Shown here one piece after another: positions 6,771 through 32,240 of a stretch of DNA of 64,000 nt; the first letter of the stretch is position 1, and the number at the start of each line of letters is the position of its first letter. The notes below the pieces were generated by a model, which saw only the letters and a program-made list of their open reading frames with translations, did no database searches and had not been told where the DNA came from. The stretch is from NCBI RefSeq assembly GCF_044324785.1, contig NZ_CP172127.1; one strand, given 5' to 3'. This DNA is from Escherichia coli. Lineage in GTDB: Bacteria; Pseudomonadota; Gammaproteobacteria; Enterobacterales; Enterobacteriaceae. The position numbers and the translations under genes were made by a program.

Positions 6771-8606
6771 CTACTCTTCGTCATCGCCATCAACATGCGC
6801 ACGAATCAGCGCCATGAACGGTTTGCCAAAGCGTTCCAGCTTGCGCATCCCAACGCCGTTAACGCTGAGCATTTCGCTGGCAGTGATCGGCATCTGTTCC
6901 GCCATCTCAATCAAGGTTGCGTCGTTAAATACCACGTACGGCGGGACATTGCTTTCATCGGCAATCGATTTACGCAGTTTGCGTAATTTGGCGAACAGTT
7001 TGCGATCGTAGTTGCCGCCGAAGGATTTCTGCATCGCTTTCGGTTTGAGCGCCACGATACGCGGCACGGCAAGTTGCAAAGAGGATTCGCCGCGCAGCAC
7101 CGGGCGCGCGGCCTCTGTCAGTTGTAGGGCAGAATGCTGGGCAATATTTTGCGTCACCAGGCCGAGGTGAATCAGCTGGCGGATCACGCTAACCCAATGT
7201 TCATGGCTTTTATCACGGCCCATGCCATAGACTTTCAGTTTGTCATGACCATAGTCGCGGATACGCTGGTTATTAGCGCCACGAATCACTTCCACCACAT
7301 AACCCATCCCAAACCGCTGATTCACACGACCAATGGTGGAAAGGGCAATCTGAGCATCGGTTGAACCATCGTATTGTTTCGGCGGATCGAGGCAGATATC
7401 GCAGTTCCCGCACGGCTCCTGCCGCCCTTCGCCAAAGTAGTTCAGCAGCACCAGACGACGGCAAGTTTGCGCTTCGGCAAACGCGCCCATCGCATTGAGT
7501 TTATGGCGCTCGATATCCTGCAACTGCCCCTGCGGTTTCTCTTCCAGACAACGGCGCAGCCACGCCATATCCGCTGGATCGTAAAACAGCATCGCTTCCG
7601 CGGGCAGGCCATCACGCCCGGCGCGTCCGGTTTCCTGATAATAGGATTCGATATTGCGCGGAATATCAAAGTGGACCACGAAGCGGACGTTTGGTTTATT
7701 GATGCCCATGCCGAACGCCACCGTCGCCACCACAATTTGCAGGTCATCGCGCTGGAATTTCTCCTGCACGTCGGCGCGAATATTATTTTCCAGCCCGGCA
7801 TGATAGGCCGCCGCGCTAATTCCCTTGCTTTGCAGGCGCGCAGCGGTGTCTTCTACTTTCGCCCGGCTGTTGCAGTAAATAATCCCCGACTTACCGCGTT
7901 GTTCCTGCACGTAGCGCATCAGCTGATCGAGAGGTTTGAACTTCTCCATCAACATGTAGCGAATATTCGGACGGTCAAAACTGCTAATTTGAATCAGCGG
8001 ATCGTTCAGCCCCAGCAGGCGCACGATATCCTGCCGCGTGGTGTCGTCGGCGGTGGCAGTCAGCGCCATAAACGGCAGCGTCGGAAAACGCTGACGCAGC
8101 TGACCGAGGGCAGCGTATTCCGGGCGGAAATCGTGGCCCCATTGGGAGATACAGTGCGCTTCATCAACGGCTAATAACACCGGATTCCAGTGCGCCAGAT
8201 GCTCAAGAAAGTTATCCAGCATCAGGCGTTCCGGCGCGATATAAAGCAGGCGGATTTGCCCGGTGCGACAGCCTGTCATAACTTCAAGTTGCTGCTCGCG
8301 GGTTTGCGTCGAGTTAAGGCACGCCGCCGCCACGCCGTTGGCTTGCAGTTGATCCACCTGATCTTTCATCAACGAAATCAGCGGTGAAACAACCACGGTA
8401 AGGCCGTTTAGCAATAAGGCAGGAATTTGATAGCAAAGGGATTTTCCGCCACCAGTGGGCATAACAACCAGGCAATCGCGACCGGAAAGTACGGTGTCGA
8501 TAATCTCTTCCTGGCCGGGGCGAAACTGTTGGTAGCCAAAGGTTTCTTGTAAAACCTGTTTAGCCCCTGACTCCAGATTCAACACTTCCGCCTGCGCCAC
8601 ATTCAC
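6771..8606 (-). CDS. recQ: ATP-dependent DNA helicase RecQ
   Basis: 611-aa ORF with helicase motifs (PTGGGKS, DEAH) and a C-terminal HRDC-like region; the true start may lie 2 codons downstream of the ORF start. Confidence 0.93.
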
Positions 8607-8618
8607 CCCGATTGCCTG

Positions 8619-8649
8619 AAATAAAAACAGGCGCTATTTTCAGCGCCTG
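8619..8649 (-). terminator. Intrinsic terminator upstream of recQ (terminates the pldA/8670..9128 transcript)
   Basis: Inverted repeat 'caggcgct...agcgcctg'; on the minus strand the stem is followed by a T-run (plus-strand 'aaataaaaa' at 8619..8627). Confidence 0.6.
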
Positions 8650-8669
8650 CGCGAGAAACTGCAATGCTT

Positions 8670-9128
8670 TTAGCGTCTGGCTGGATAATGTTGGATGCTG
8701 GATTCCAGATTTGCCAGGATCAAAGCGACATCGGCATCCGCCAAACGAAATTCCGCCTGCCATATATTCTCTGACGTATGAAATGTAGGGCATAGCCCGC
8801 AAGCCAGTATCACTTTGATAATAATGACATCACCGGAATACCCTGTGTATTCGAACTCCAGGCATGGCTCGGTAAATTCCAGATTTTTCTCCGGGTAGCC
8901 ATCGGGAGAAGGGCGCTGCAACAATGTGGTAAACCACCTATGAAGCTTTGTTAAGTCATATGTCCCTATTGCCGGATCTATCTTTTCAAACCGCTGATTT
9001 CCCTGCGTCACGCCCACTTTGAGGAATAACCAGTTACCATCCCAGAAATTACTGGCATCAGGATACTGATACCCCATAACATCCAGCGTCAAAGTAACGG
9101 CCAGCTCACTATTGCTTAACGTAATCAT
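8670..9128 (-). CDS. Hypothetical 152-aa protein (candidate accessory gene between pldA and recQ)
   Basis: Intact ORF MITLSNSELAVTLTLDVMGYQYPDASNFWDGNWLFLKVG...; no signal peptide or transmembrane segment seen; does not match any protein I recognise; sits between two core genes. Confidence 0.55.
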   Translation of the reverse strand: MITLSNSELAVTLTLDVMGYQYPDASNFWDGNWLFLKVGVTQGNQRFEKIDPAIGTYDLTKLHRWFTTLLQRPSPDGYPEKNLEFTEPCLEFEYTGYSGDVIIIKVILACGLCPTFHTSENIWQAEFRLADADVALILANLESSIQHYPARR

Positions 9129-9176
9129 ATCATTTGATTTTTAAACAAAAATTAGGTGCTGGCACTCTACCATGCA

Positions 9177-10046
9177 TTAAAACAGGTCGTTTAGCATAAC
9201 CCCCACACCAACGCGGGTCTGGTTGAAGTTATAGTCGATGAGCGATTCGCCATAGCCGCTGTAAACCTGAGTATAAAGGCGCACATGTTTGGTGATCGGG
9301 TAACTTAAGCCTAACTCCGCACCGCCGTAGCCCGTGTTCCAGTTGTACTGCCCTTTCGCACTGAGCACCGCATCACCGAGGTGATAGCCGATTTTAAGCT
9401 GGTAGTAACCCATATATTTGGTGATATCCGGGTTATCGTCAGTATTACCCACCACATACCACGGCTTCACCTCTACCAGCCAGTTACCGTTTTCTGCCAT
9501 CAGGCGTGTATAAAGGCGGTTCCAGCTGCGGGAGGTCGGGTCTGAACGCCCGTTAGAGTCGTGGTTATACCCCATCTCCACATCGCGCAGCGTCCAACCT
9601 GCAAAACGGTAATCGGTGGCAAAACCGAGGAACAATTGCGGTTCGTAGTTGGTTTCACGAAACGGTGAAGACTCTTCGCTATTGGACAGTTGCCACCAGG
9701 ATTTTTGCGTGTAAGACGCACCCAATACCGAGTTCGGGCCTAAAATCCCACGCCACAGCGGAAATGCCAGGCTCAACTGAAACTTTACTTCATCCTTACG
9801 CGCATTTTCCGCCCAGTCGTAACTGGCAATCGCTTCTTTATTCAGATCGCTGGTTTGGGTGTAGATGAGGTAGTTAGTGTCATAAGGATAGAGTGTGAAC
9901 GGATTGTCATGCTCCTGCAGCATATTGGCGATAATACTGCCACGCACCGCAGGCGCGTCATGCACCTCTTTCACCGTTGCCTCTTGTGCATATACTGCCA
10001 TAGGCAACATAAACACCGGCAACAACCAGCCCTGCAGAGTCCGCAT
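9177..10046 (-). CDS. pldA: Outer membrane phospholipase A
   Basis: 289-aa ORF MRTLQGWLLPVFMLPMAVYAQEATVKEVHDAPAVRGSIIANMLQEHDNPF... with N-terminal signal peptide. Confidence 0.93.
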   Translation of the reverse strand: MRTLQGWLLPVFMLPMAVYAQEATVKEVHDAPAVRGSIIANMLQEHDNPFTLYPYDTNYLIYTQTSDLNKEAIASYDWAENARKDEVKFQLSLAFPLWRGILGPNSVLGASYTQKSWWQLSNSEESSPFRETNYEPQLFLGFATDYRFAGWTLRDVEMGYNHDSNGRSDPTSRSWNRLYTRLMAENGNWLVEVKPWYVVGNTDDNPDITKYMGYYQLKIGYHLGDAVLSAKGQYNWNTGYGGAELGLSYPITKHVRLYTQVYSGYGESLIDYNFNQTRVGVGVMLNDLF

Positions 10047-12496: not shown

Positions 12497-12530
12497 GTGG
12501 CTTAGCCAGGCTAAGCCACCGCCTTCTTTT
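12497..12530 (+). terminator. Intrinsic terminator after yigG (bidirectional hairpin at the ancestral yigG/corA junction)
   Basis: Stem 'ggtggcttagcc / ggctaagccacc' followed by 'gccttctttt'. Confidence 0.65.
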
Positions 12531-12679
12531 TACAACCAGTTCTTCCGCTTAAAGTACAGATACGGTGCCAGGCCCGCGAGGATCATAAAGATAATCGCGC
12601 CAGGGTAGCCGAAACTCCACTTCAGTTCCGGCATAAACTCAAAGTTCATGCCATAGCTGGAGGCAATCCGCGTAGGAAA
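12530..12679 (-). pseudogene. corA: Displaced 3'-terminal fragment of corA (last ~48 codons, no start)
   Basis: ~150 bp that is a near copy of corA 14241..14390 (identical over the first 70 bp, a handful of mostly silent mismatches afterwards, then diverging); encodes ...[44 protein letters not shown], identical to the CorA C-terminus. The 67-aa ORF 12530..12733 is this fragment fused to unrelated upstream sequence. Confidence 0.85.
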
Positions 12680-14240: not shown

Positions 14241-15191
14241 TTACAACCAGTTCTTCCGCTTAAAGTACAGATACGGTGCCAGGCCCGCGAGGATCATAAA
14301 GATAATCGCGCCTGGGTAGCCGAAACTCCACTTCAGTTCTGGCATAAACTCAAAGTTCATCCCGTAGCTGGAAGCAACCAGCGTCGGTGGCAGGAACACC
14401 ACGGATACCACCGAGAAGATTTTGATGATGCGGTTCTGCTCGATGTTGATAAAGCCCATAGCCGCCTGCATCAGGAAGTTCACCTTCTGGAACAGGGATT
14501 CGTTATGCGGCAGCAGGGATTCGATATCTCGCAGGATTTCACGCGCCTGCTCCAGTTGCCCACCCGGTAAGCGTGCTTTACGTACCAGGAAGTTGAGCGC
14601 GCGCTGGGTATCCATCAGACACAGGCGAACTTTCCAGCCGATATCTTCCAGTTCCGCCAGCGTGGAGAGCGCCTCGTCGTACTCATCGCCCTGATGCCCT
14701 TCCATAATTACCCGGCTCAACTGCTCCAGGTCGCTGTAGATATTTTCAATTTCATCTGCCAACTGTTCGATTTTGGTTTCGAACAGATCCAGCAGCAGCT
14801 CGTAGGCATTACCGTCTACCATCGACTGGCTACGGGCACGCATACGATACAGACGGAATGCAGGCAATTCACGCTCACGCAGAGTAAACAGACGACCATC
14901 ACGGATGGTAAATGCCACAGTGGAGTTACCGGCGTGATCTTCCGCATCTTCAAAGAAGAAGAAGGAGTGAATATGCAGGCCGTCATCGTCTTCAAAGAAA
15001 CGTGCCGATGCTTCGATGTCTTCCAGTTCCGGGCGGGTTGCCAGGCTCTGGCCAAGTTCAGATTGTACGCGCAGTCGCTCGTCGTCGTCCGGTTCGACAA
15101 GATCAATCCATACTGCATTTACAAGGGGTTGTGACTCTTCGACTTCCAGCCGGGTCAGTCGGTTATTTTCCAGTTGAAATGCGCTCAGCAT
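14241..15191 (-). CDS. corA: Mg2+/Co2+ transporter CorA
   Basis: Start placed at [31 protein letters not shown]... (316 aa); C-terminal GMN motif ([11 protein letters not shown]); 'cat' at 15189..15191. Confidence 0.93.
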
Positions 15192-16407: not shown

Positions 16408-17310
16408 ATGAAAAAAACGCTCGCAACGTTATTTTTATTAACGTGTCTGGGATCATCATCCGCTTATGCGGATAACGCTTTGATTTTACAAACTGATTTT
16501 AGCCTGAAAGATGGTGCCGTCTCGGCGATGAAAGGGGTCGCATTCGGTGTTGACCATAATCTTAAAATATTTGATTTAACACACGAAATTCCACCGTATA
16601 ACATCTGGGAAGGCGCTTACCGCCTGTATCAGACCGCCAGTTACTGGCCGCAAGGTTCGGTATTTGTCAGTGTGGTCGATCCTGGTGTTGGTACAGACCG
16701 TAAATCGGTAGTGCTGAAAACCAAAAACGGTCAATACTTCGTTTCACCAGATAACGGTACGCTCACTTTGGTGGCACAAACTCTGGGTATTGATAGCGTC
16801 CGGGAAATCGACGAAAAAGCTAACCGCCTGAAAGGTTCTGAAAAGTCATATACCTTCCACGGTCGTGACGTGTATGCCTACACCGGTGCGCGTCTGGCTT
16901 CCGGGGCGATTACGTTCGAACAGGTGGGGCCAGAGCTTCCTGCAAAAGTTGTCGAACTTTCTTATCAGAAAGCAAAAGCAACAAAAGGTGAAGTGAAGGG
17001 CAATATCCCGATTCTCGATATTCAGTACGGCAACGTCTGGAGCAATATCAGCGACGAGTTGCTGAATCAGGCAGGAATCAAACTCAACGACACGTTGTGT
17101 GTGACCATTTCCGAAGGTTCCCAGCAAAAATACGCAGGGAAAATGCCGTATGTCGCAAGCTTCGGCGATGTGCCGGAAGGCCAGCCGATGGTGTATCTGA
17201 ACAGCTTGTTGAATGTTTCCGTGGCGCTGAATATGGATAATTTTGCGCAGAAACATCAGGTTGCGTCTGGTGCTGACTGGAATATTGATGTGAAGAAGTG
17301 CGCTAAGTAA
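16408..17310 (+). CDS. SAM hydroxide adenosyltransferase (DUF62) family protein with N-terminal signal peptide
   Basis: 300-aa ORF; signal peptide MKKTLATLFLLTCLGSSSAYA; then LILQTDFSLKDGAVSAMKGVAFGVD...THEIPPYNI...VSVVDPGVGTDRKSVVLKTKNGQYFVSPDNGTL, which matches the DUF62 N-domain pattern as I remember it. Confidence 0.7.
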   Translation: MKKTLATLFLLTCLGSSSAYADNALILQTDFSLKDGAVSAMKGVAFGVDHNLKIFDLTHEIPPYNIWEGAYRLYQTASYWPQGSVFVSVVDPGVGTDRKSVVLKTKNGQYFVSPDNGTLTLVAQTLGIDSVREIDEKANRLKGSEKSYTFHGRDVYAYTGARLASGAITFEQVGPELPAKVVELSYQKAKATKGEVKGNIPILDIQYGNVWSNISDELLNQAGIKLNDTLCVTISEGSQQKYAGKMPYVASFGDVPEGQPMVYLNSLLNVSVALNMDNFAQKHQVASGADWNIDVKKCAK

Positions 17311-23136: not shown

Positions 23137-24645
23137 GTGATCGGCACCTCGCGCCAGGATGGCTTTATGCACTATCGCAATGTGGTTTGTTTGTTGTCTT
23201 GTTCGTTGTTTTTATCGTCGGCATGGGGATGTCGGCTTTCCGCGCCTGAACATAATATTTACCAGAAACAGGGAAAAGGCGTGGTATACCTGCGCCCTTA
23301 TAAAGAAACAAATCTTTCTCTTCCTGACGTGAATTACAAAAGTTTGCGTCGGTTACCCAATTTATTAATAGACCCGACAACACTAGACGAATGGGATAAA
23401 GAACCGCCTCTGACTGATTTGACAACCGACTACCTCTATGAAGGCGCACAGGCCTGGTATCCTCATTACTCCTGGCATAGCGATGGTCGCTATATCCTTT
23501 ACGCGGGTGAAGTTGTGCAAAACCCGCCAGACAAACCTCCCGTCGATGTCGCCTCGTTCAAGGCGTGGGGTGATTTTGCCGCAGATAAACACAGTCTCTA
23601 TTTCGAAGGCAAGCGCACCGATAACAATGGCGGGGGAAATAGCTTAGATATCAAAACACTGCATCAGGTGGAATTCCGGCCTCCCTGGAAACCTGACTTA
23701 CTGGGGCTGATATTACGTGACGCTAATTTCTTATATATCAATGGGCATCGCCTCGCTGACCCCGAGAGTTTCCGTGTGCTGGCGCAGAAGTCCTGGGATC
23801 AGCGAGGAAAGTTTTCTACCGCGTTTAATCCCTGTGTGGCTATGCCATTTGGCCCCTGGGATACCCTGGCTCGTACACGGACCAAAATCCTGATCAACGG
23901 CGAACAGCTTGATGCCGACCCGGACACCTTTTCCGTCGTGCGCTGGATGCCCGGCTCACTCTTGACCTGGCGTGATAAAAACGGGCTACAGCGTAAAGTC
24001 CTCGACAAGGAAAATCTGGCGTGGGATGAAGATTTAACAAAGCACTGTCTGGATTTTTCTCTGCTGGAAAAGAAAGTGTTCTGGCGTAAAGGGCCTGACT
24101 GTAAACAGGAAGAGTTACCGGGGCTCGATCCTGAACAGTTCCACCCCATCAGTGATGCTGTCGCCCAGTATCAGGATTCGCTTTATACCATCATCGAAAC
24201 AGAGTCTGGTGACCGCAAGCTGGAGATCGTGAAACTTGATGATCCCAATCTTATTATCAACAAACGTTTCAACGCCGGGAAACGCCACGGCTATTTACTT
24301 ACGCGTGCCGAAGGGTGGCCATACCATTCCGGTTTACACGTGTTTGAATCTGACGGACCGCTGATCTTACTGGATAACCGCTCTCCGGATGAACGCGAAG
24401 CCCATCTTAATGACCATCCCTTTTTGCGCAGATGGTATGCCCGCGATAACCGCTACATTTACAGCTTTGATGGCGCGCAGCTCTGGCGATACCGCATCGC
24501 TGATCCGAAACAAGTTCGCTTAATCTGGAAGGAACAACATTCGGGATATGGCTATGGCGTAAATTACAAAACGGGATATCTGGACGGAAAAATTACTGAT
24601 GACGGCGAATTTATTCCTGCCCCGCGCAATGAGGCGACAAAATGA
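23137..24645 (+). CDS. Secreted repeat protein (DKNYY-like repeats), first of a tandem paralogue pair
   Basis: 502-aa ORF (an alternative start at 23167, MHYRNVVCLLSCSLFLSSAWGC..., gives a signal-like N-terminus); recurring motifs DKHSLYFEGKR, DANFLYINGHRL, DNRYIYSFDG; collinear similarity to the downstream ORF. Confidence 0.65.
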   Translation: MIGTSRQDGFMHYRNVVCLLSCSLFLSSAWGCRLSAPEHNIYQKQGKGVVYLRPYKETNLSLPDVNYKSLRRLPNLLIDPTTLDEWDKEPPLTDLTTDYLYEGAQAWYPHYSWHSDGRYILYAGEVVQNPPDKPPVDVASFKAWGDFAADKHSLYFEGKRTDNNGGGNSLDIKTLHQVEFRPPWKPDLLGLILRDANFLYINGHRLADPESFRVLAQKSWDQRGKFSTAFNPCVAMPFGPWDTLARTRTKILINGEQLDADPDTFSVVRWMPGSLLTWRDKNGLQRKVLDKENLAWDEDLTKHCLDFSLLEKKVFWRKGPDCKQEELPGLDPEQFHPISDAVAQYQDSLYTIIETESGDRKLEIVKLDDPNLIINKRFNAGKRHGYLLTRAEGWPYHSGLHVFESDGPLILLDNRSPDEREAHLNDHPFLRRWYARDNRYIYSFDGAQLWRYRIADPKQVRLIWKEQHSGYGYGVNYKTGYLDGKITDDGEFIPAPRNEATK

Positions 24646-25952
24646 AGGGTCAAATAATCACAGTTGCACTCATCCTGTTGGGGCACACATTTCTGACACC
24701 TGCTGTACAGGCCATAGAGTTCGACTATTACAATGATCACGGTGTCATGTCTTACGGTAAAGGTTATTGGGGGGATAAGAAAATCATTGCCCAATTTCCG
24801 AAGATGAACAGGGCCGATTTGCGCCTTGTGAAAAATATATCCGGGGAGACGGATTATATACCTTCCGATGAAATGAGCATAAAAAATGAGGAATACCACT
24901 GGGTGACAGACGGCCACGTTATTCTCTGGCGTGGCAAAATCGTTAGCAATCCACCGGGAACACCCACTGTCGATATTGCCAGCTTTCAGGCTATGGGCCG
25001 CTTCGCGGTCGATAAATATAGCCTCTATTTTGACGGACAGCGCACCGAAAGTAATAGCGGCGCGTCACGTGTTGATCTGGCGACACTAAAAGCTATCGAA
25101 GGTAACTCTACCACGCTGGTGGATAGTAAAAATCTCTACTTGTCCGGTAGACGTCAGGGGAGCAGCAGTAATGTTACTGTATTAGAAAAAAGATGGTGGG
25201 GTATTAATCCACGTCTTATGAGTGTAAACAGAAATTTGTATTCCAATGATCTGCTTATCCGCAGTGGGCAGAATATTTATTTAAATGGCGTTCACCTTAC
25301 GGCGAATGCAGACTCATTTGAGATAATTCGCTGGATACCTCATTCACTGCTGGTTTTTCGCGATAATAAGGGTATGCATCGTTATCCCTTTGGGCAATTG
25401 TCTGGCAAAGCGATACCCGTAGATGATGACGTCTCTTTTGAAGTAGGAGAAAGTCGCGTTCGCTGGCGTAAACAGCTCACGCCCGACCGTCAGTGGAGCA
25501 AGTGGATAGACCTACCAGGTATTGAACCTGAACAATTCCATCTGATTACTGGCAATATTGCGCAATATAAAGATCGGTTGTATGTAACAAAATTATCGAC
25601 ATTTGGTGAAGACCAGCTTGAGATAATCCCGCTGGATACGCCAGACCTGGTCATTGATCGCTCATTTAATAGCGGCAAACAGCATGCTTATTTTATCCGC
25701 CAATTACGGTCAAAGAGCGTGCAAATTATTCCAGTTAACGGTCCGCTAACTAAAAACGATCGCTTCGCTTATGACGATCGCAATGTTTATACATGGACCG
25801 ATACAGAGGTAAGGATTACGCCCTCCCCCTGCCCGGCGAAAACACGCGTCAGAGAAGAGAATGTGCGTGAACTTCACAACAGAGACATTATTATTCCGTT
25901 GACGGATGAATCATGCCAGAACGCAGCAGACGAGCAAACTTTGAAGCCCTGA
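24642..25952 (+). CDS. Secreted repeat protein (DKNYY-like repeats), second of the tandem paralogue pair
   Basis: 436-aa ORF with signal peptide MKGQIITVALILLGHTFLTPAVQA; start overlaps the upstream stop (ATGA); motifs DKYSLYFDGQR, DSKNLYLSGRR, QNIYLNGVHL, DRNVYTW. Confidence 0.65.
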   Translation: MKGQIITVALILLGHTFLTPAVQAIEFDYYNDHGVMSYGKGYWGDKKIIAQFPKMNRADLRLVKNISGETDYIPSDEMSIKNEEYHWVTDGHVILWRGKIVSNPPGTPTVDIASFQAMGRFAVDKYSLYFDGQRTESNSGASRVDLATLKAIEGNSTTLVDSKNLYLSGRRQGSSSNVTVLEKRWWGINPRLMSVNRNLYSNDLLIRSGQNIYLNGVHLTANADSFEIIRWIPHSLLVFRDNKGMHRYPFGQLSGKAIPVDDDVSFEVGESRVRWRKQLTPDRQWSKWIDLPGIEPEQFHLITGNIAQYKDRLYVTKLSTFGEDQLEIIPLDTPDLVIDRSFNSGKQHAYFIRQLRSKSVQIIPVNGPLTKNDRFAYDDRNVYTWTDTEVRITPSPCPAKTRVREENVRELHNRDIIIPLTDESCQNAADEQTLKP

Positions 25953-25999
25953 CCCCATGCCGCTATACTGCCGCCATCACTTAAAAACAGGATACAACA

Positions 26000-30234: not shown

Positions 30235-30971
30235 GTATCCTGGTCACCCGCCCGTCTCCCGCTGGAGAAGAGTTAGTGAGCCGTCTGCGCACACTGGGGC
30301 AGGTGGCCTGGCATTTTCCGCTGATTGAGTTTTCTCCGGGTCAACAATTACCGCAACTTGCTGATCAACTGGCAGCGCTGGGGGAGAGCGATCTGTTGTT
30401 TGCCCTCTCGCAACACGCGGTTGCTTTTGCCCAATCACAGCTACATCAGCAAGATCGTAAATGGCCCCGACTACCTGATTATTTCGCCATTGGACGCACC
30501 ACCGCACTGGCACTACATACCGTAAGCGGACAGAAGATTCTCTACCCGCAGGATCGGGAAATCAGCGAAGTCTTGCTACAATTACCTGAATTACAAAATA
30601 TTGCGGGCAAACGTGCGCTGATATTACGTGGCAATGGCGGTCGTGAGCTAATTGGGGATACCCTGACGGCGCGCGGTGCTGAGGTCACTTTTTGTGAATG
30701 TTATCAACGATGCGCAATCCATTACGATGGTGCAGAAGAAGCGATGCGCTGGCAATCCCGCGAGGTGACGACGGTCGTTGTTACCAGCGGTGAAATGTTG
30801 CAGCAACTCTGGTCGCTGATCCCACAATGGTATCGTGAGCACTGGTTACTACGCTGTCGACTATTGGTCGTCAGTGAGCGTTTGGCGAAACTCGCCCGGG
30901 AACTGGGCTGGCAAGACATTAAGGTCGCCGATAACGCTGACAACGATGCGCTTTTACGGGCATTACAATAA
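30231..30971 (+). CDS. hemD: Uroporphyrinogen-III synthase
   Basis: 246-aa ORF; start overlaps the hemC stop (ATGA). Confidence 0.9.
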
Positions 30972-30992
30972 CTCTCATAACAGGAAGCCATA

Positions 30993-32240
30993 ATGACGGA
31001 ACAAGAAAAAACCTCCGCCGTGGTTGAAGAGACCAGGGAGGCCGTGGACACCACGTCACAACCTGTCGCAACAGAAAAAAAGAGTAAGAACAATACCGCA
31101 TTGATTCTCAGCGCGGTGGCTATCGCTATTGCTCTGGCGGCGGGCGTCGGTTTGTATGGCTGGGGTAAACAACAGGCCGTCAATCAGACTGCCACCAGCG
31201 ATGCCCTGGCTAATCAACTTACGGCACTGCAAAAAGCCCAGGAGAGCCAAAAAGCCGAGCTGGAAGGCATTATCAAGCAACAGGCTACGCAGCTTGAACA
31301 GGCGAATCGTCAGCAAGAAACGCTGGCAAAACAGTTGGATGAAGTCCAACAAAAGGTCGCCACCATTTCCGGCAGCGATGCTAAAACCTGGCTGCTGGCT
31401 CAGGCTGATTTCCTGGTGAAACTCGCCGGACGGAAGCTGTGGAGCGATCAGGACGTCACGACCGCTGCAGCGTTGCTGAAAAGTGCAGACGCCAGCCTGG
31501 CGGATATGAATGACCCGAGTCTGATTACCGTTCGTCGGGCAATTACCGATGATATTGCCAGCCTTTCTGCGGTATCGCAGGTGGATTATGACGGCATTAT
31601 CCTTAAGCTGAATCAGCTTTCAAATCAGGTAGATAACCTGCGTCTGGCTGATAATGACAGCGATGGTTCGCCGATGGATTCCGACGGTGAAGAGCTTTCC
31701 AGTTCCCTCAGCGAATGGCGTATCAATCTGCAAAAAAGCTGGCAGAACTTTATGGACAACTTCATTACGATTCGCCGTCGTGATGACACCGCCGTACCGC
31801 TGTTAGCGCCGAATCAGGATATCTATCTGCGCGAAAATATTCGCTCTCGCCTGCTGGTCGCTGCACAAGCTGTACCGCGTCATCAGGAAGAGACTTATCG
31901 CCAGGCGCTGGAGAATGTCTCCACCTGGGTACGTGCTTACTACGATACTGATGATGCCACCACCAAAGCGTTCCTCGACGAGGTGGACCAGTTAAGCCAG
32001 CAAAATATCTCGATGGATCTCCCGGAAACCCTGCAAAGCCAGGCGATGCTGGAAAAACTGATGCAGACTCGCGTGCGTAACCTGCTGGCACAACCGGCAG
32101 CGGGGACAACGGAAGCTAAACCTGCACCTGCACCTGCACCTGCACCTGCACCTGCACCTGCACCTGCACCTGCACCTGCACCTGCACCTGCACCTGCACC
32201 GCAAGCTGATACTCCGGCAGCCGCGCCGCAAGGAGAATAA
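30993..32240 (+). CDS. hemX: HemX (membrane-anchored coiled-coil protein with C-terminal Pro-Ala repeat)
   Basis: 415-aa [55 protein letters not shown]...; ends ...AK(PA)13[13 protein letters not shown]. Confidence 0.9.
32121..32198 (+). repeat. Perfect hexanucleotide tandem repeat (CCTGCA)13 within hemX, encoding (Pro-Ala)13
   Basis: Thirteen uninterrupted CCTGCA units counted directly from 32121 to 32198; in frame. Confidence 0.95.

Follow-up and report, generated by a model that had tools for sequence, protein, structure and literature searches.

What is a lone 152-codon open reading frame (ORF) doing between pldA and recQ in Escherichia coli, how did it get there, and what might its product do? 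The ORF lies in a 64,000-nucleotide stretch of contig NZ_CP172127.1 (assembly GCF_044324785.1), hereafter the window, and is intact from its ATG start to its TAA stop (Table 1). The original prediction, made from the letters of the window, described an intact same-strand ORF of this size in a gap of ~570 bp, a G+C content below that of its neighbors, and a hairpin terminator just upstream of recQ, and these observations stand. The coordinates agree and the interval measures 570 bp; the ORF has 46.6% G+C (GC3 51%) against 51.3% in pldA, which encodes outer-membrane phospholipase A, 54.9% in recQ, and 51.8% in the window as a whole; and the terminator, a 10-bp stem followed by a T-tract, folds at -21.4 kcal/mol with a z-score of -2.5 relative to shuffled sequences. 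The window is colinear with E. coli strain N3 at ~99% identity, and the N3 gene is identical to the ORF at every nucleotide (100%). Its product, identical to that of the window, is recorded in RefSeq as WP_042003081.1, "WapI family immunity protein," the name also used by UniRef. The gene is, in other words, already catalogued, under a known family of proteins that confer immunity to polymorphic toxins, and what the locus adds concerns its history, its variation, and the meaning of that family name.

Table 1. Features of the pldA-recQ slot and its neighbors; positions are those of the window.
Feature	Position	Strand	Basis
recQ, downstream neighbor	6771..8606 (longest ORF); RefSeq start, 8600	minus	ORF list and N3 annotation
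Right conserved arm: last ~48 nt of the ORF, terminator, and recQ leader	8601..8717	minus	alignments A1 and A5; strains CM13 and 1190
pldA-recQ interval, 570 bp	8607..9176
Intrinsic terminator: 10-bp G+C-rich stem (8650..8627), 4-nt loop, then TTTTTATTT	8617..8650	minus	terminator scan and folding
152-aa ORF	8670..9128	minus	ORF list
Two-haplotype patch (…QHYPARR or …QDYPLRD, followed by the stop) in the 3'-terminal part of the ORF	8674..8697	minus	alignments A1 and A5
Divergent core	8718..9082	minus	alignments A4 and A5, sliding identity, codon analysis
444-bp segment absent from the common E. coli arrangement	8719..9162	minus	gapped pairwise alignment
Left conserved arm: last 24 bp of pldA, 48-bp spacer, and first 46 nt of the ORF	9083..9200	minus	alignment A5
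A+T-rich spacer, pldA stop to ORF start, 48 bp	9129..9176	minus	sequence read directly
pldA, upstream neighbor (outer-membrane phospholipase A)	9177..10046	minus	ORF list and RefSeq annotation of colinear strain N3

Whether the frame is a gene at all can be judged from how it varies. Selection was assessed on three 152-aa alleles, those of the window, strain GF4-3, and contig L006, with 15-26 nucleotide differences among them. Their dN/dS ratios fall between 0.26 and 0.33, with dS (0.07-0.14) like that of the flanking genes, and the most distant pair differs by 13 changes of each kind, synonymous (100 sites) and non-synonymous (356 sites), with a binomial P of 0.0015. The corresponding ratios for pldA and recQ are below 0.01. 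Intact 152-aa forms are recorded on more than 400 contigs, and intact forms of a second, 160-aa version on more than 250. Because the product matches a Pfam model over its full length, has relatives in 602 protein clusters, is modeled with a pLDDT of 95, and shows a synonymous excess among its alleles, we take the frame for a real gene and not a chance one; the substitution pattern indicates that it is under purifying selection, albeit much weaker than that acting on pldA and recQ.

The protein was originally thought to match nothing recognizable, but a Pfam scan (hmmscan) places it in PF24716, the "Immunity protein WapI-like family," with an E-value of 6.6e-22 and a score of 78.6 bits. The match joins residues 12-149 of the protein to positions 9-138 of the 138-position model, and nothing besides WapI is returned by Pfam for this protein at E ≤ 10. 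Since NCBIfam has no match for the window protein or for three of its relatives, the name attached to WP_042003081.1 was evidently taken from the Pfam model. When 1.84 billion representative proteins were searched exhaustively, 602 homologous clusters emerged at E ≤ 1e-3; the clusters listed are nearly all single-domain proteins of ~150 aa, and the homologues found all carry a precomputed PF24716 match. Searches aimed at B. subtilis WapI, with profile A2 and with the Bacillus mycoides member, returned only uncharacterized or B. cereus-group proteins. Members of the family share the motifs GYxFP (GYxxP), NW, WF, FxEPC, and a C-terminal PxR, all of which are found in the 152-aa protein, as are the residues that never vary in the family (Y20, W33, W65, and P149) and those that hardly do (P23, F85, E87, P88, P114, and R151). 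Several of these residues (Y20, W33, W65, E87-P88, P149, and R151) are unchanged across phyla, a degree of conservation greater than that usually displayed by toxin-specific immunity proteins.

An AlphaFold model of the protein, built on an 85-sequence alignment, is confident (pLDDT 95, pTM 0.88) and predicts one compact, Whirly/PUR-like domain made of two β-β-β-β-α repeats. Its top matches in the AlphaFold database are uncharacterized proteins of the same size that superpose at TM 0.85-0.9, E. fergusonii B7LU34 among them, and proteins annotated as "Immunity protein 42" appear at ranks 12 and 16 (TM 0.85-0.90); the likeness to Imm42 is one of fold only, and the window protein has no match to that Pfam family at E ≤ 10. 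Sequence searches of the PDB with the protein and with the 85-sequence profile gave nothing meaningful and no solved structure of a relative. The two β4-α repeats recall the superfold of Whirly, PUR-alpha, MRP1-MRP2, and SsgA proteins, at only 8-12% identity and TM 0.4-0.5. Those proteins bind single-stranded nucleic acids via basic surfaces, whereas the window protein and its family are strongly acidic: the 152-aa protein has a pI of 4.7 and a net charge of -8, the family median pI is 4.76, and 91% of members lie below pI 6. Acidic charge is typical of nuclease inhibitors. The acidity of the family fits poorly with nucleic-acid binding of the Whirly type, and the resemblance to the Whirly/PUR fold is, as far as the models go, structural only. 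Neither hydropathy nor the model points to a signal peptide or a membrane segment, in line with what had been proposed from the outset: the N terminus carries acidic residues, and the most hydrophobic stretch (residues ~98-116, Kyte-Doolittle 1.7) is modeled as β-strands within the globular domain. The 152-aa protein is a clear, cytosolic member of PF24716.

How the gene came to occupy this slot is answered by genomes with and without it. The whole gene is found in 2 of the 5,426 complete E. coli genomes, N3 and GF4-3. The common arrangement is that of strain CM13, in which the gene is absent and pldA and recQ are separated by a 132-bp spacer. In it, the 14 bp that follow the pldA stop run straight into the final ~47 bp of the ORF, after which come the ORF's stop and the terminator. 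Relative to the window, this arrangement lacks 444 bp, from 14 bp past the pldA stop to about codon 137 of the ORF. All 28 partial matches sampled across the 5,425 matching genomes start, on the recQ side, at query position 515 or 516 (8716 or 8715 in the window); an identical junction in every sampled case argues for one old deletion, and the common E. coli state looks like the product of a single 444-bp event. The scar was seen in sampled common E. coli genomes that include CM13 and 1190, with K-12 itself not among them.

Two relatives have the gene at this very position. One is the E. albertii type strain, with flanks that match those of the window at 88-90% identity; the other is contig L005, whose flanks match at 94-97% and which, from this level of divergence and the names in the protein cluster, is probably E. 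fergusonii; members of that cluster are named E. fergusonii (the type strain ATCC 35469 included), E. albertii, and E. coli. A scan of species-representative genomes with the single protein gave no match, and a search with a five-sequence alignment recovered the E. albertii type strain alone. Because relatives share the slot and the sampled E. coli genomes keep a scar, comparison of these genomes indicates that the gene is ancestral in Escherichia and that the common E. coli state is derived, by loss and not by insertion. Neither direct nor inverted repeats, nor a target-site duplication, turned up around the ORF in the repeat search. The original prediction thus fares unevenly here. Its statement that the usual E. 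coli pldA-recQ arrangement lacks the gene agrees with the 132-bp spacer of CM13, but its description of the ORF as inserted is contradicted by the slot shared with E. albertii and L005 and by the ~47-bp scar kept at one junction in the sampled E. coli genomes. The notion that would have made the ORF commonplace, a conserved annotated gene present in K-12 and all relatives, holds in part: the gene is annotated where it is present, but in the sampled common E. coli genomes only the scar is found.

The slot is not only occupied or empty; it is occupied in two ways. It holds either the 152-aa version or a 160-aa version, with a protein identity of about 50% between them. The 160-aa version is found in E. 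albertii, in L005, and in cluster members named E. fergusonii, and E. fergusonii records include both versions; none of the 5,426 complete E. coli genomes has the 160-aa core. Divergence between the versions is confined to a core with 50-62% nucleotide identity, whose central 113 codons have a dN of 0.50 and a saturated dS, and this core is bounded by two near-invariant arms (Table 1). The left arm is identical at 117 of 118 positions between the window and E. albertii, against just about 87% for the flanking genes, and dS between the versions is 0 over the first 16 codons. The right arm differs at two positions in the same comparison, and all Escherichia sequences examined have it, even those that lack the gene. 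Within it, both haplotypes of the 3'-terminal patch of the ORF are found in intact genes and in deletion scars alike. In CM13, 68 bp of the left arm remain and carry 8 mismatches to the window, which suggests that constraint on this arm may lapse once the gene is lost.

The 160-aa version has evidently moved between species. Between L005 and E. albertii, this version is 97-99% identical with a dS of 0.048, against 81-90% identity for the pldA and recQ flanks; the flank dS values measured, which are those between the window and L005, are 0.48 for pldA and 0.30 for recQ. Because conserved arms enclose a diverged core and the 160-aa sequence is so alike across species, the simplest reading is that homologous recombination in the arms has exchanged the versions, both inside single Escherichia species and from one species to another.

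How could a gene in this position be expressed? The promoter scan found no σ70-like promoter between pldA and the ORF. The only hexamer pair seen by eye in the 48-bp spacer has a spacing of ~13 bp and overlaps the start codon, and we dropped it as a candidate promoter. The spacer itself forms a weak hairpin only (-8.2 kcal/mol, z = 0.11), no better than shuffled sequences, and direct reading of the A+T-rich start region reveals no clear Shine-Dalgarno sequence upstream of the ORF. An Rfam scan of positions 8400-9400 returned just a chance lncRNA match and no known RNA in the interval. The intrinsic terminator, which is invariant in alignments A1 and A5, is common to pldA and the ORF, and in genomes without the gene the same terminator serves pldA. 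Given that no promoter-like site follows pldA and that the sole strong terminator lies after the ORF, read-through from pldA is expected; pldA, upstream and on the same strand, is the probable source of the transcript, and we infer that the ORF is transcribed with pldA as a two-gene unit.

The function of the protein is best approached through the namesake of its family. In B. subtilis, WapI neutralizes WapA, a toxin with Rhs repeats and a tRNase at its C terminus, and its gene lies directly downstream of wapA (PMC4436062, PMC8321402). The window protein is like WapI in matching the same family model over its full length, in its small single-domain size, and in its RefSeq family name, although the tie between the two runs through the name of the Pfam family and not through a direct alignment. 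WapI adjoins its toxin gene, whereas the window gene lies between pldA upstream and recQ downstream with no toxin nearby, and the annotation of colinear strain N3 lists no Rhs, CdiA, or T6SS gene over its first 50 kb. Stand-alone immunity genes are exemplified by orphan CdiI/RhsI genes and by the acquired interbacterial defence clusters of gut Bacteroidales. The window gene is like these in being an immunity-type gene without a toxin, strain-variable, horizontally exchanged, and plausibly protective against the toxins of neighbors, and it has the marks by which an orphan immunity gene would be known: it is intact without a linked toxin, it is under purifying selection, it exists in two versions, and its 160-aa version is shared across species. 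Known orphan immunity genes usually sit in arrays by rhs/cdi loci or on mobile islands (PMC4436062), whereas the window gene is single, occupies a fixed housekeeping slot, is apparently co-transcribed with pldA, and changes by allelic replacement.

Thirteen homologue contexts sampled outside Escherichia place the gene in a wider frame. One is a canonical toxin-immunity pair, in Ca. Thiodiazotropha endolucinida: the homologue, which aligns with the window protein at 27% identity and a pairwise E-value of 7e-18, starts 8 bp after the gene for a 3,852-aa Rhs/YD-shell protein that ends in a PT-HINT pretoxin domain (E 2.1e-19) followed by a basic C-terminal domain of ~120 aa with no Pfam family and no sequence match in the PDB. 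This relative, like WapI, is directly behind an Rhs-type toxin gene; the family thus includes toxin-linked members, in support of the immunity label. A second context is an array of small genes on a Methylomonas plasmid, where the homologue adjoins ADP-ribosylglycohydrolase and BREX genes, and a third, on metagenomic contig L021, is an operon of unknown proteins that also contains a Sel1-repeat gene. In the other ten, among them Gilliamella, Leptospiraceae, Spirochaetota, Anaerolineales, Cellulomonas, Kineosporia, and the B. cereus group, the homologue is a lone gene among housekeeping genes, and several of these lone homologues start 10-20 bp past an unrelated gene on the same strand. The B. 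cereus group homologue is 67-96% identical across species and has the same neighbors in three genomes; it appears conserved and syntenic, unlike typical immunity genes with their fast turnover. Functional ties to the Escherichia neighbors were considered and dropped: relatives in other taxa have neighbors unrelated to pldA, and a link to recQ via the Whirly-like fold is at odds with an acidic protein whose adjacency to recQ is confined to Escherichia.

The best description of the window gene is that of an orphan, or stand-alone, member of the WapI-like immunity family. An orphan immunity protein had been among the guesses of the original prediction, and it agrees with both the PF24716 assignment and the RefSeq name. 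We posit, with a probability of roughly 55%, that it acts protectively, by binding a toxin domain of the Rhs/WapA type that enters the cell. On this model, a competing bacterium would inject a WapA/Rhs-type polymorphic toxin whose C-terminal domain, probably a nuclease or tRNase, would be bound and blocked by the immunity protein in a cell that makes no such toxin itself. The 152-aa and 160-aa versions would recognize different toxin variants, the gene would be read through from pldA as part of a two-gene transcript, and homologous recombination in the arms would let strains and species trade one version for the other.

Several other accounts have to be set beside this one. The protein could be a true member of PF24716 that belongs to a non-immunity branch, a stand-alone Whirly/PUR-like cellular protein with a conserved partner or ligand, to which the immunity label was carried over from one characterized relative. 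We consider this possible, if doubtful. It would account for the 10 of 13 toxin-less contexts among housekeeping genes outside Escherichia, for the lone members placed 10-20 bp past an unrelated same-strand gene, for the apparent conservation and synteny of the B. cereus group gene, and for the invariant residues and motifs (GYxxP, NW, WF, FxEPC, and PxR) common to several phyla. It is harder to reconcile with the pairing of one member with an Rhs/PT-HINT toxin and with a family namesake experimentally proven to be an immunity protein (PMC4436062, PMC8321402). The acidity of the family (91% below pI 6) speaks against nucleic-acid binding of the Whirly type, proteins annotated as Imm42 are among the structural neighbors, and the loss of the gene from the sampled common E. 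coli genomes marks it as dispensable; two versions ~50% identical and exchanged across species fit genes of conflict better than housekeeping genes.

The rarity of the whole gene, in just 2 of 5,426 complete E. coli genomes, could be read in two further ways, neither of which we find persuasive. If the frame were a decaying relic, still open by chance, functionless in the window strain, and heading for deletion, one could understand a dN/dS of about 0.3, far above the values of pldA and recQ (<0.01), the want of a recognizable ribosome-binding site and of a promoter of its own, and G+C and GC3 values below those of the neighbors. Yet the synonymous excess is significant (P = 0.0015), unbroken copies of the ORF occur in hundreds of assemblies from three species, the fold is confident with all family-invariant residues in place, and the spacer and start region, near-invariant across species, have drifted in gene-less CM13 (8 mismatches in 68 bp); decay is accordingly improbable. 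Even less credible, and in our view very improbable, is a recent insertion, whether of horizontally acquired cargo, of what is left of a mobile element or island, or of a gene for phage defence or anti-defence. The lower G+C, the absence of the gene from almost all E. coli, and the evident movement of the 160-aa sequence between species are what such an event might leave behind, but that movement is allelic replacement via homologous arms; the 3' end of the ORF survives in E. coli without the gene, a sign of loss and not gain, and the basal species E. albertii has the gene in the same slot. A mobile-element insertion was rejected because neither target-site duplication nor terminal inverted repeats are present, and no repeats, integrase, or transposase remnants flank the gene. 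The defence or anti-defence reading was likewise rejected: PADLOC returned no match, PHROGs no meaningful match, and tblastn against 50,697 phage records no match, so that the original suggestions of an anti-defence gene or an island remnant found nothing to sustain them. An orphan immunity protein directed against toxins of the Rhs/WapA type remains the reading that we prefer.

What the locus contributes beyond its annotation is threefold. The pldA-recQ spacer of the sampled common E. coli genomes is the scar of a lost gene and not a simple gap between a terminator and a promoter. Near-invariant arms enclose one or the other of two versions that are deeply diverged, of which the 160-aa version has evidently crossed species boundaries, a pattern that suggests interbacterial-conflict selection at a housekeeping locus. 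And most of the sampled members of the "WapI" family stand alone, so that either immunity without a toxin is the norm in this family or its annotation is overstretched. Most E. coli are naturally without the gene, which makes the immunity question easily testable by rescue. The relevance of these observations is modest and pertains to bacterial competition and to the evolution of the E. coli genome, with small practical importance. Taken together they allow a more speculative picture, which we hold to be less likely than not: a long-lived immunity locus with two ancient versions might be kept by balancing selection, passed among E. coli, E. fergusonii, and E. albertii via its arms, and lost once in the main E. 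coli lineage, and, more broadly, most PF24716 genes might be toxin-less, fixed, "innate" protectors against widespread Rhs-type toxins, or else the immunity label of the family might be largely wrong.

Over window positions 6771-10046, pldA and the WapI-like gene together differ from strain N3 (L001), the colinear E. coli genome, at 1 of 1,329 bp, whereas the adjoining recQ differs at 21 of 1,815 bp, with a dS of 0.05. Near-identity on one side and divergence on the other place a recombination breakpoint near the terminator and the start of recQ.

Other features of the region are listed in the table. Two copies of the corA 3' end, which are 95% identical, enclose ~1.7 kb with two genes annotated in N3 as encoding a YPO3983 family protein and a DUF943 family protein, and this segment between yigF and corA has the appearance of a small insertion event in which the target was duplicated. 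Two further genes separate lptM/dapF from cyaY, which are neighbours in K-12, so the pair may be one more islet that varies between strains within a stretch of housekeeping genes. A gene of the SAM hydrolase/SAM-dependent halogenase family is also found, with PF01887/PF20257 matches, in L005, the E. fergusonii-like contig that carries a 160-aa version of the WapI-like gene. In N3, hemD is annotated as frameshifted.

Coordinates of features in the window and in contigs carrying WapI-family homologues
Feature	Location	Details
Extra copy of corA 3' end	window 12530-12673	144 bp
Intact corA end	window 14241-14384	
SAM hydrolase/SAM-dependent halogenase family protein	window ~16408-17310	between yigE and uvrD
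DKNYY family protein	within window ~23177-25977	about 492 aa; N3 annotation
Hypothetical protein	within window ~23177-25977	about 441 aa; N3 annotation
hemD of N3	L025:30255-30994	equivalent to window ~30256-30995
Small-gene series, M. koyamae pFW12EY	L026:3910-8833	order: YbjN-domain, two hypothetical, 5'-deoxynucleotidase, WapI-like, ADP-ribosylglycohydrolase
Rhs/YD-shell protein, Ca. T. endolucinida	L027:1-5992	3,852 aa; He_PIG repeats

Homologues of the WapI family are found in other settings. On the Methylomonas koyamae plasmid pFW12EY, one lies within a series of small genes on the same strand that is followed immediately by BREX genes (DUF1819, DUF1788), and the whole may constitute a mixed immunity and defence array. 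On the Ca. Thiodiazotropha endolucinida contig, the family member follows the gene for an Rhs/YD-shell protein that ends in a PT-HINT domain and then a basic domain of about 120 aa. This C-terminal domain has no match among Pfam families or PDB sequences. It is a candidate for a new toxin domain, paired with a member of the WapI family as its immunity protein.
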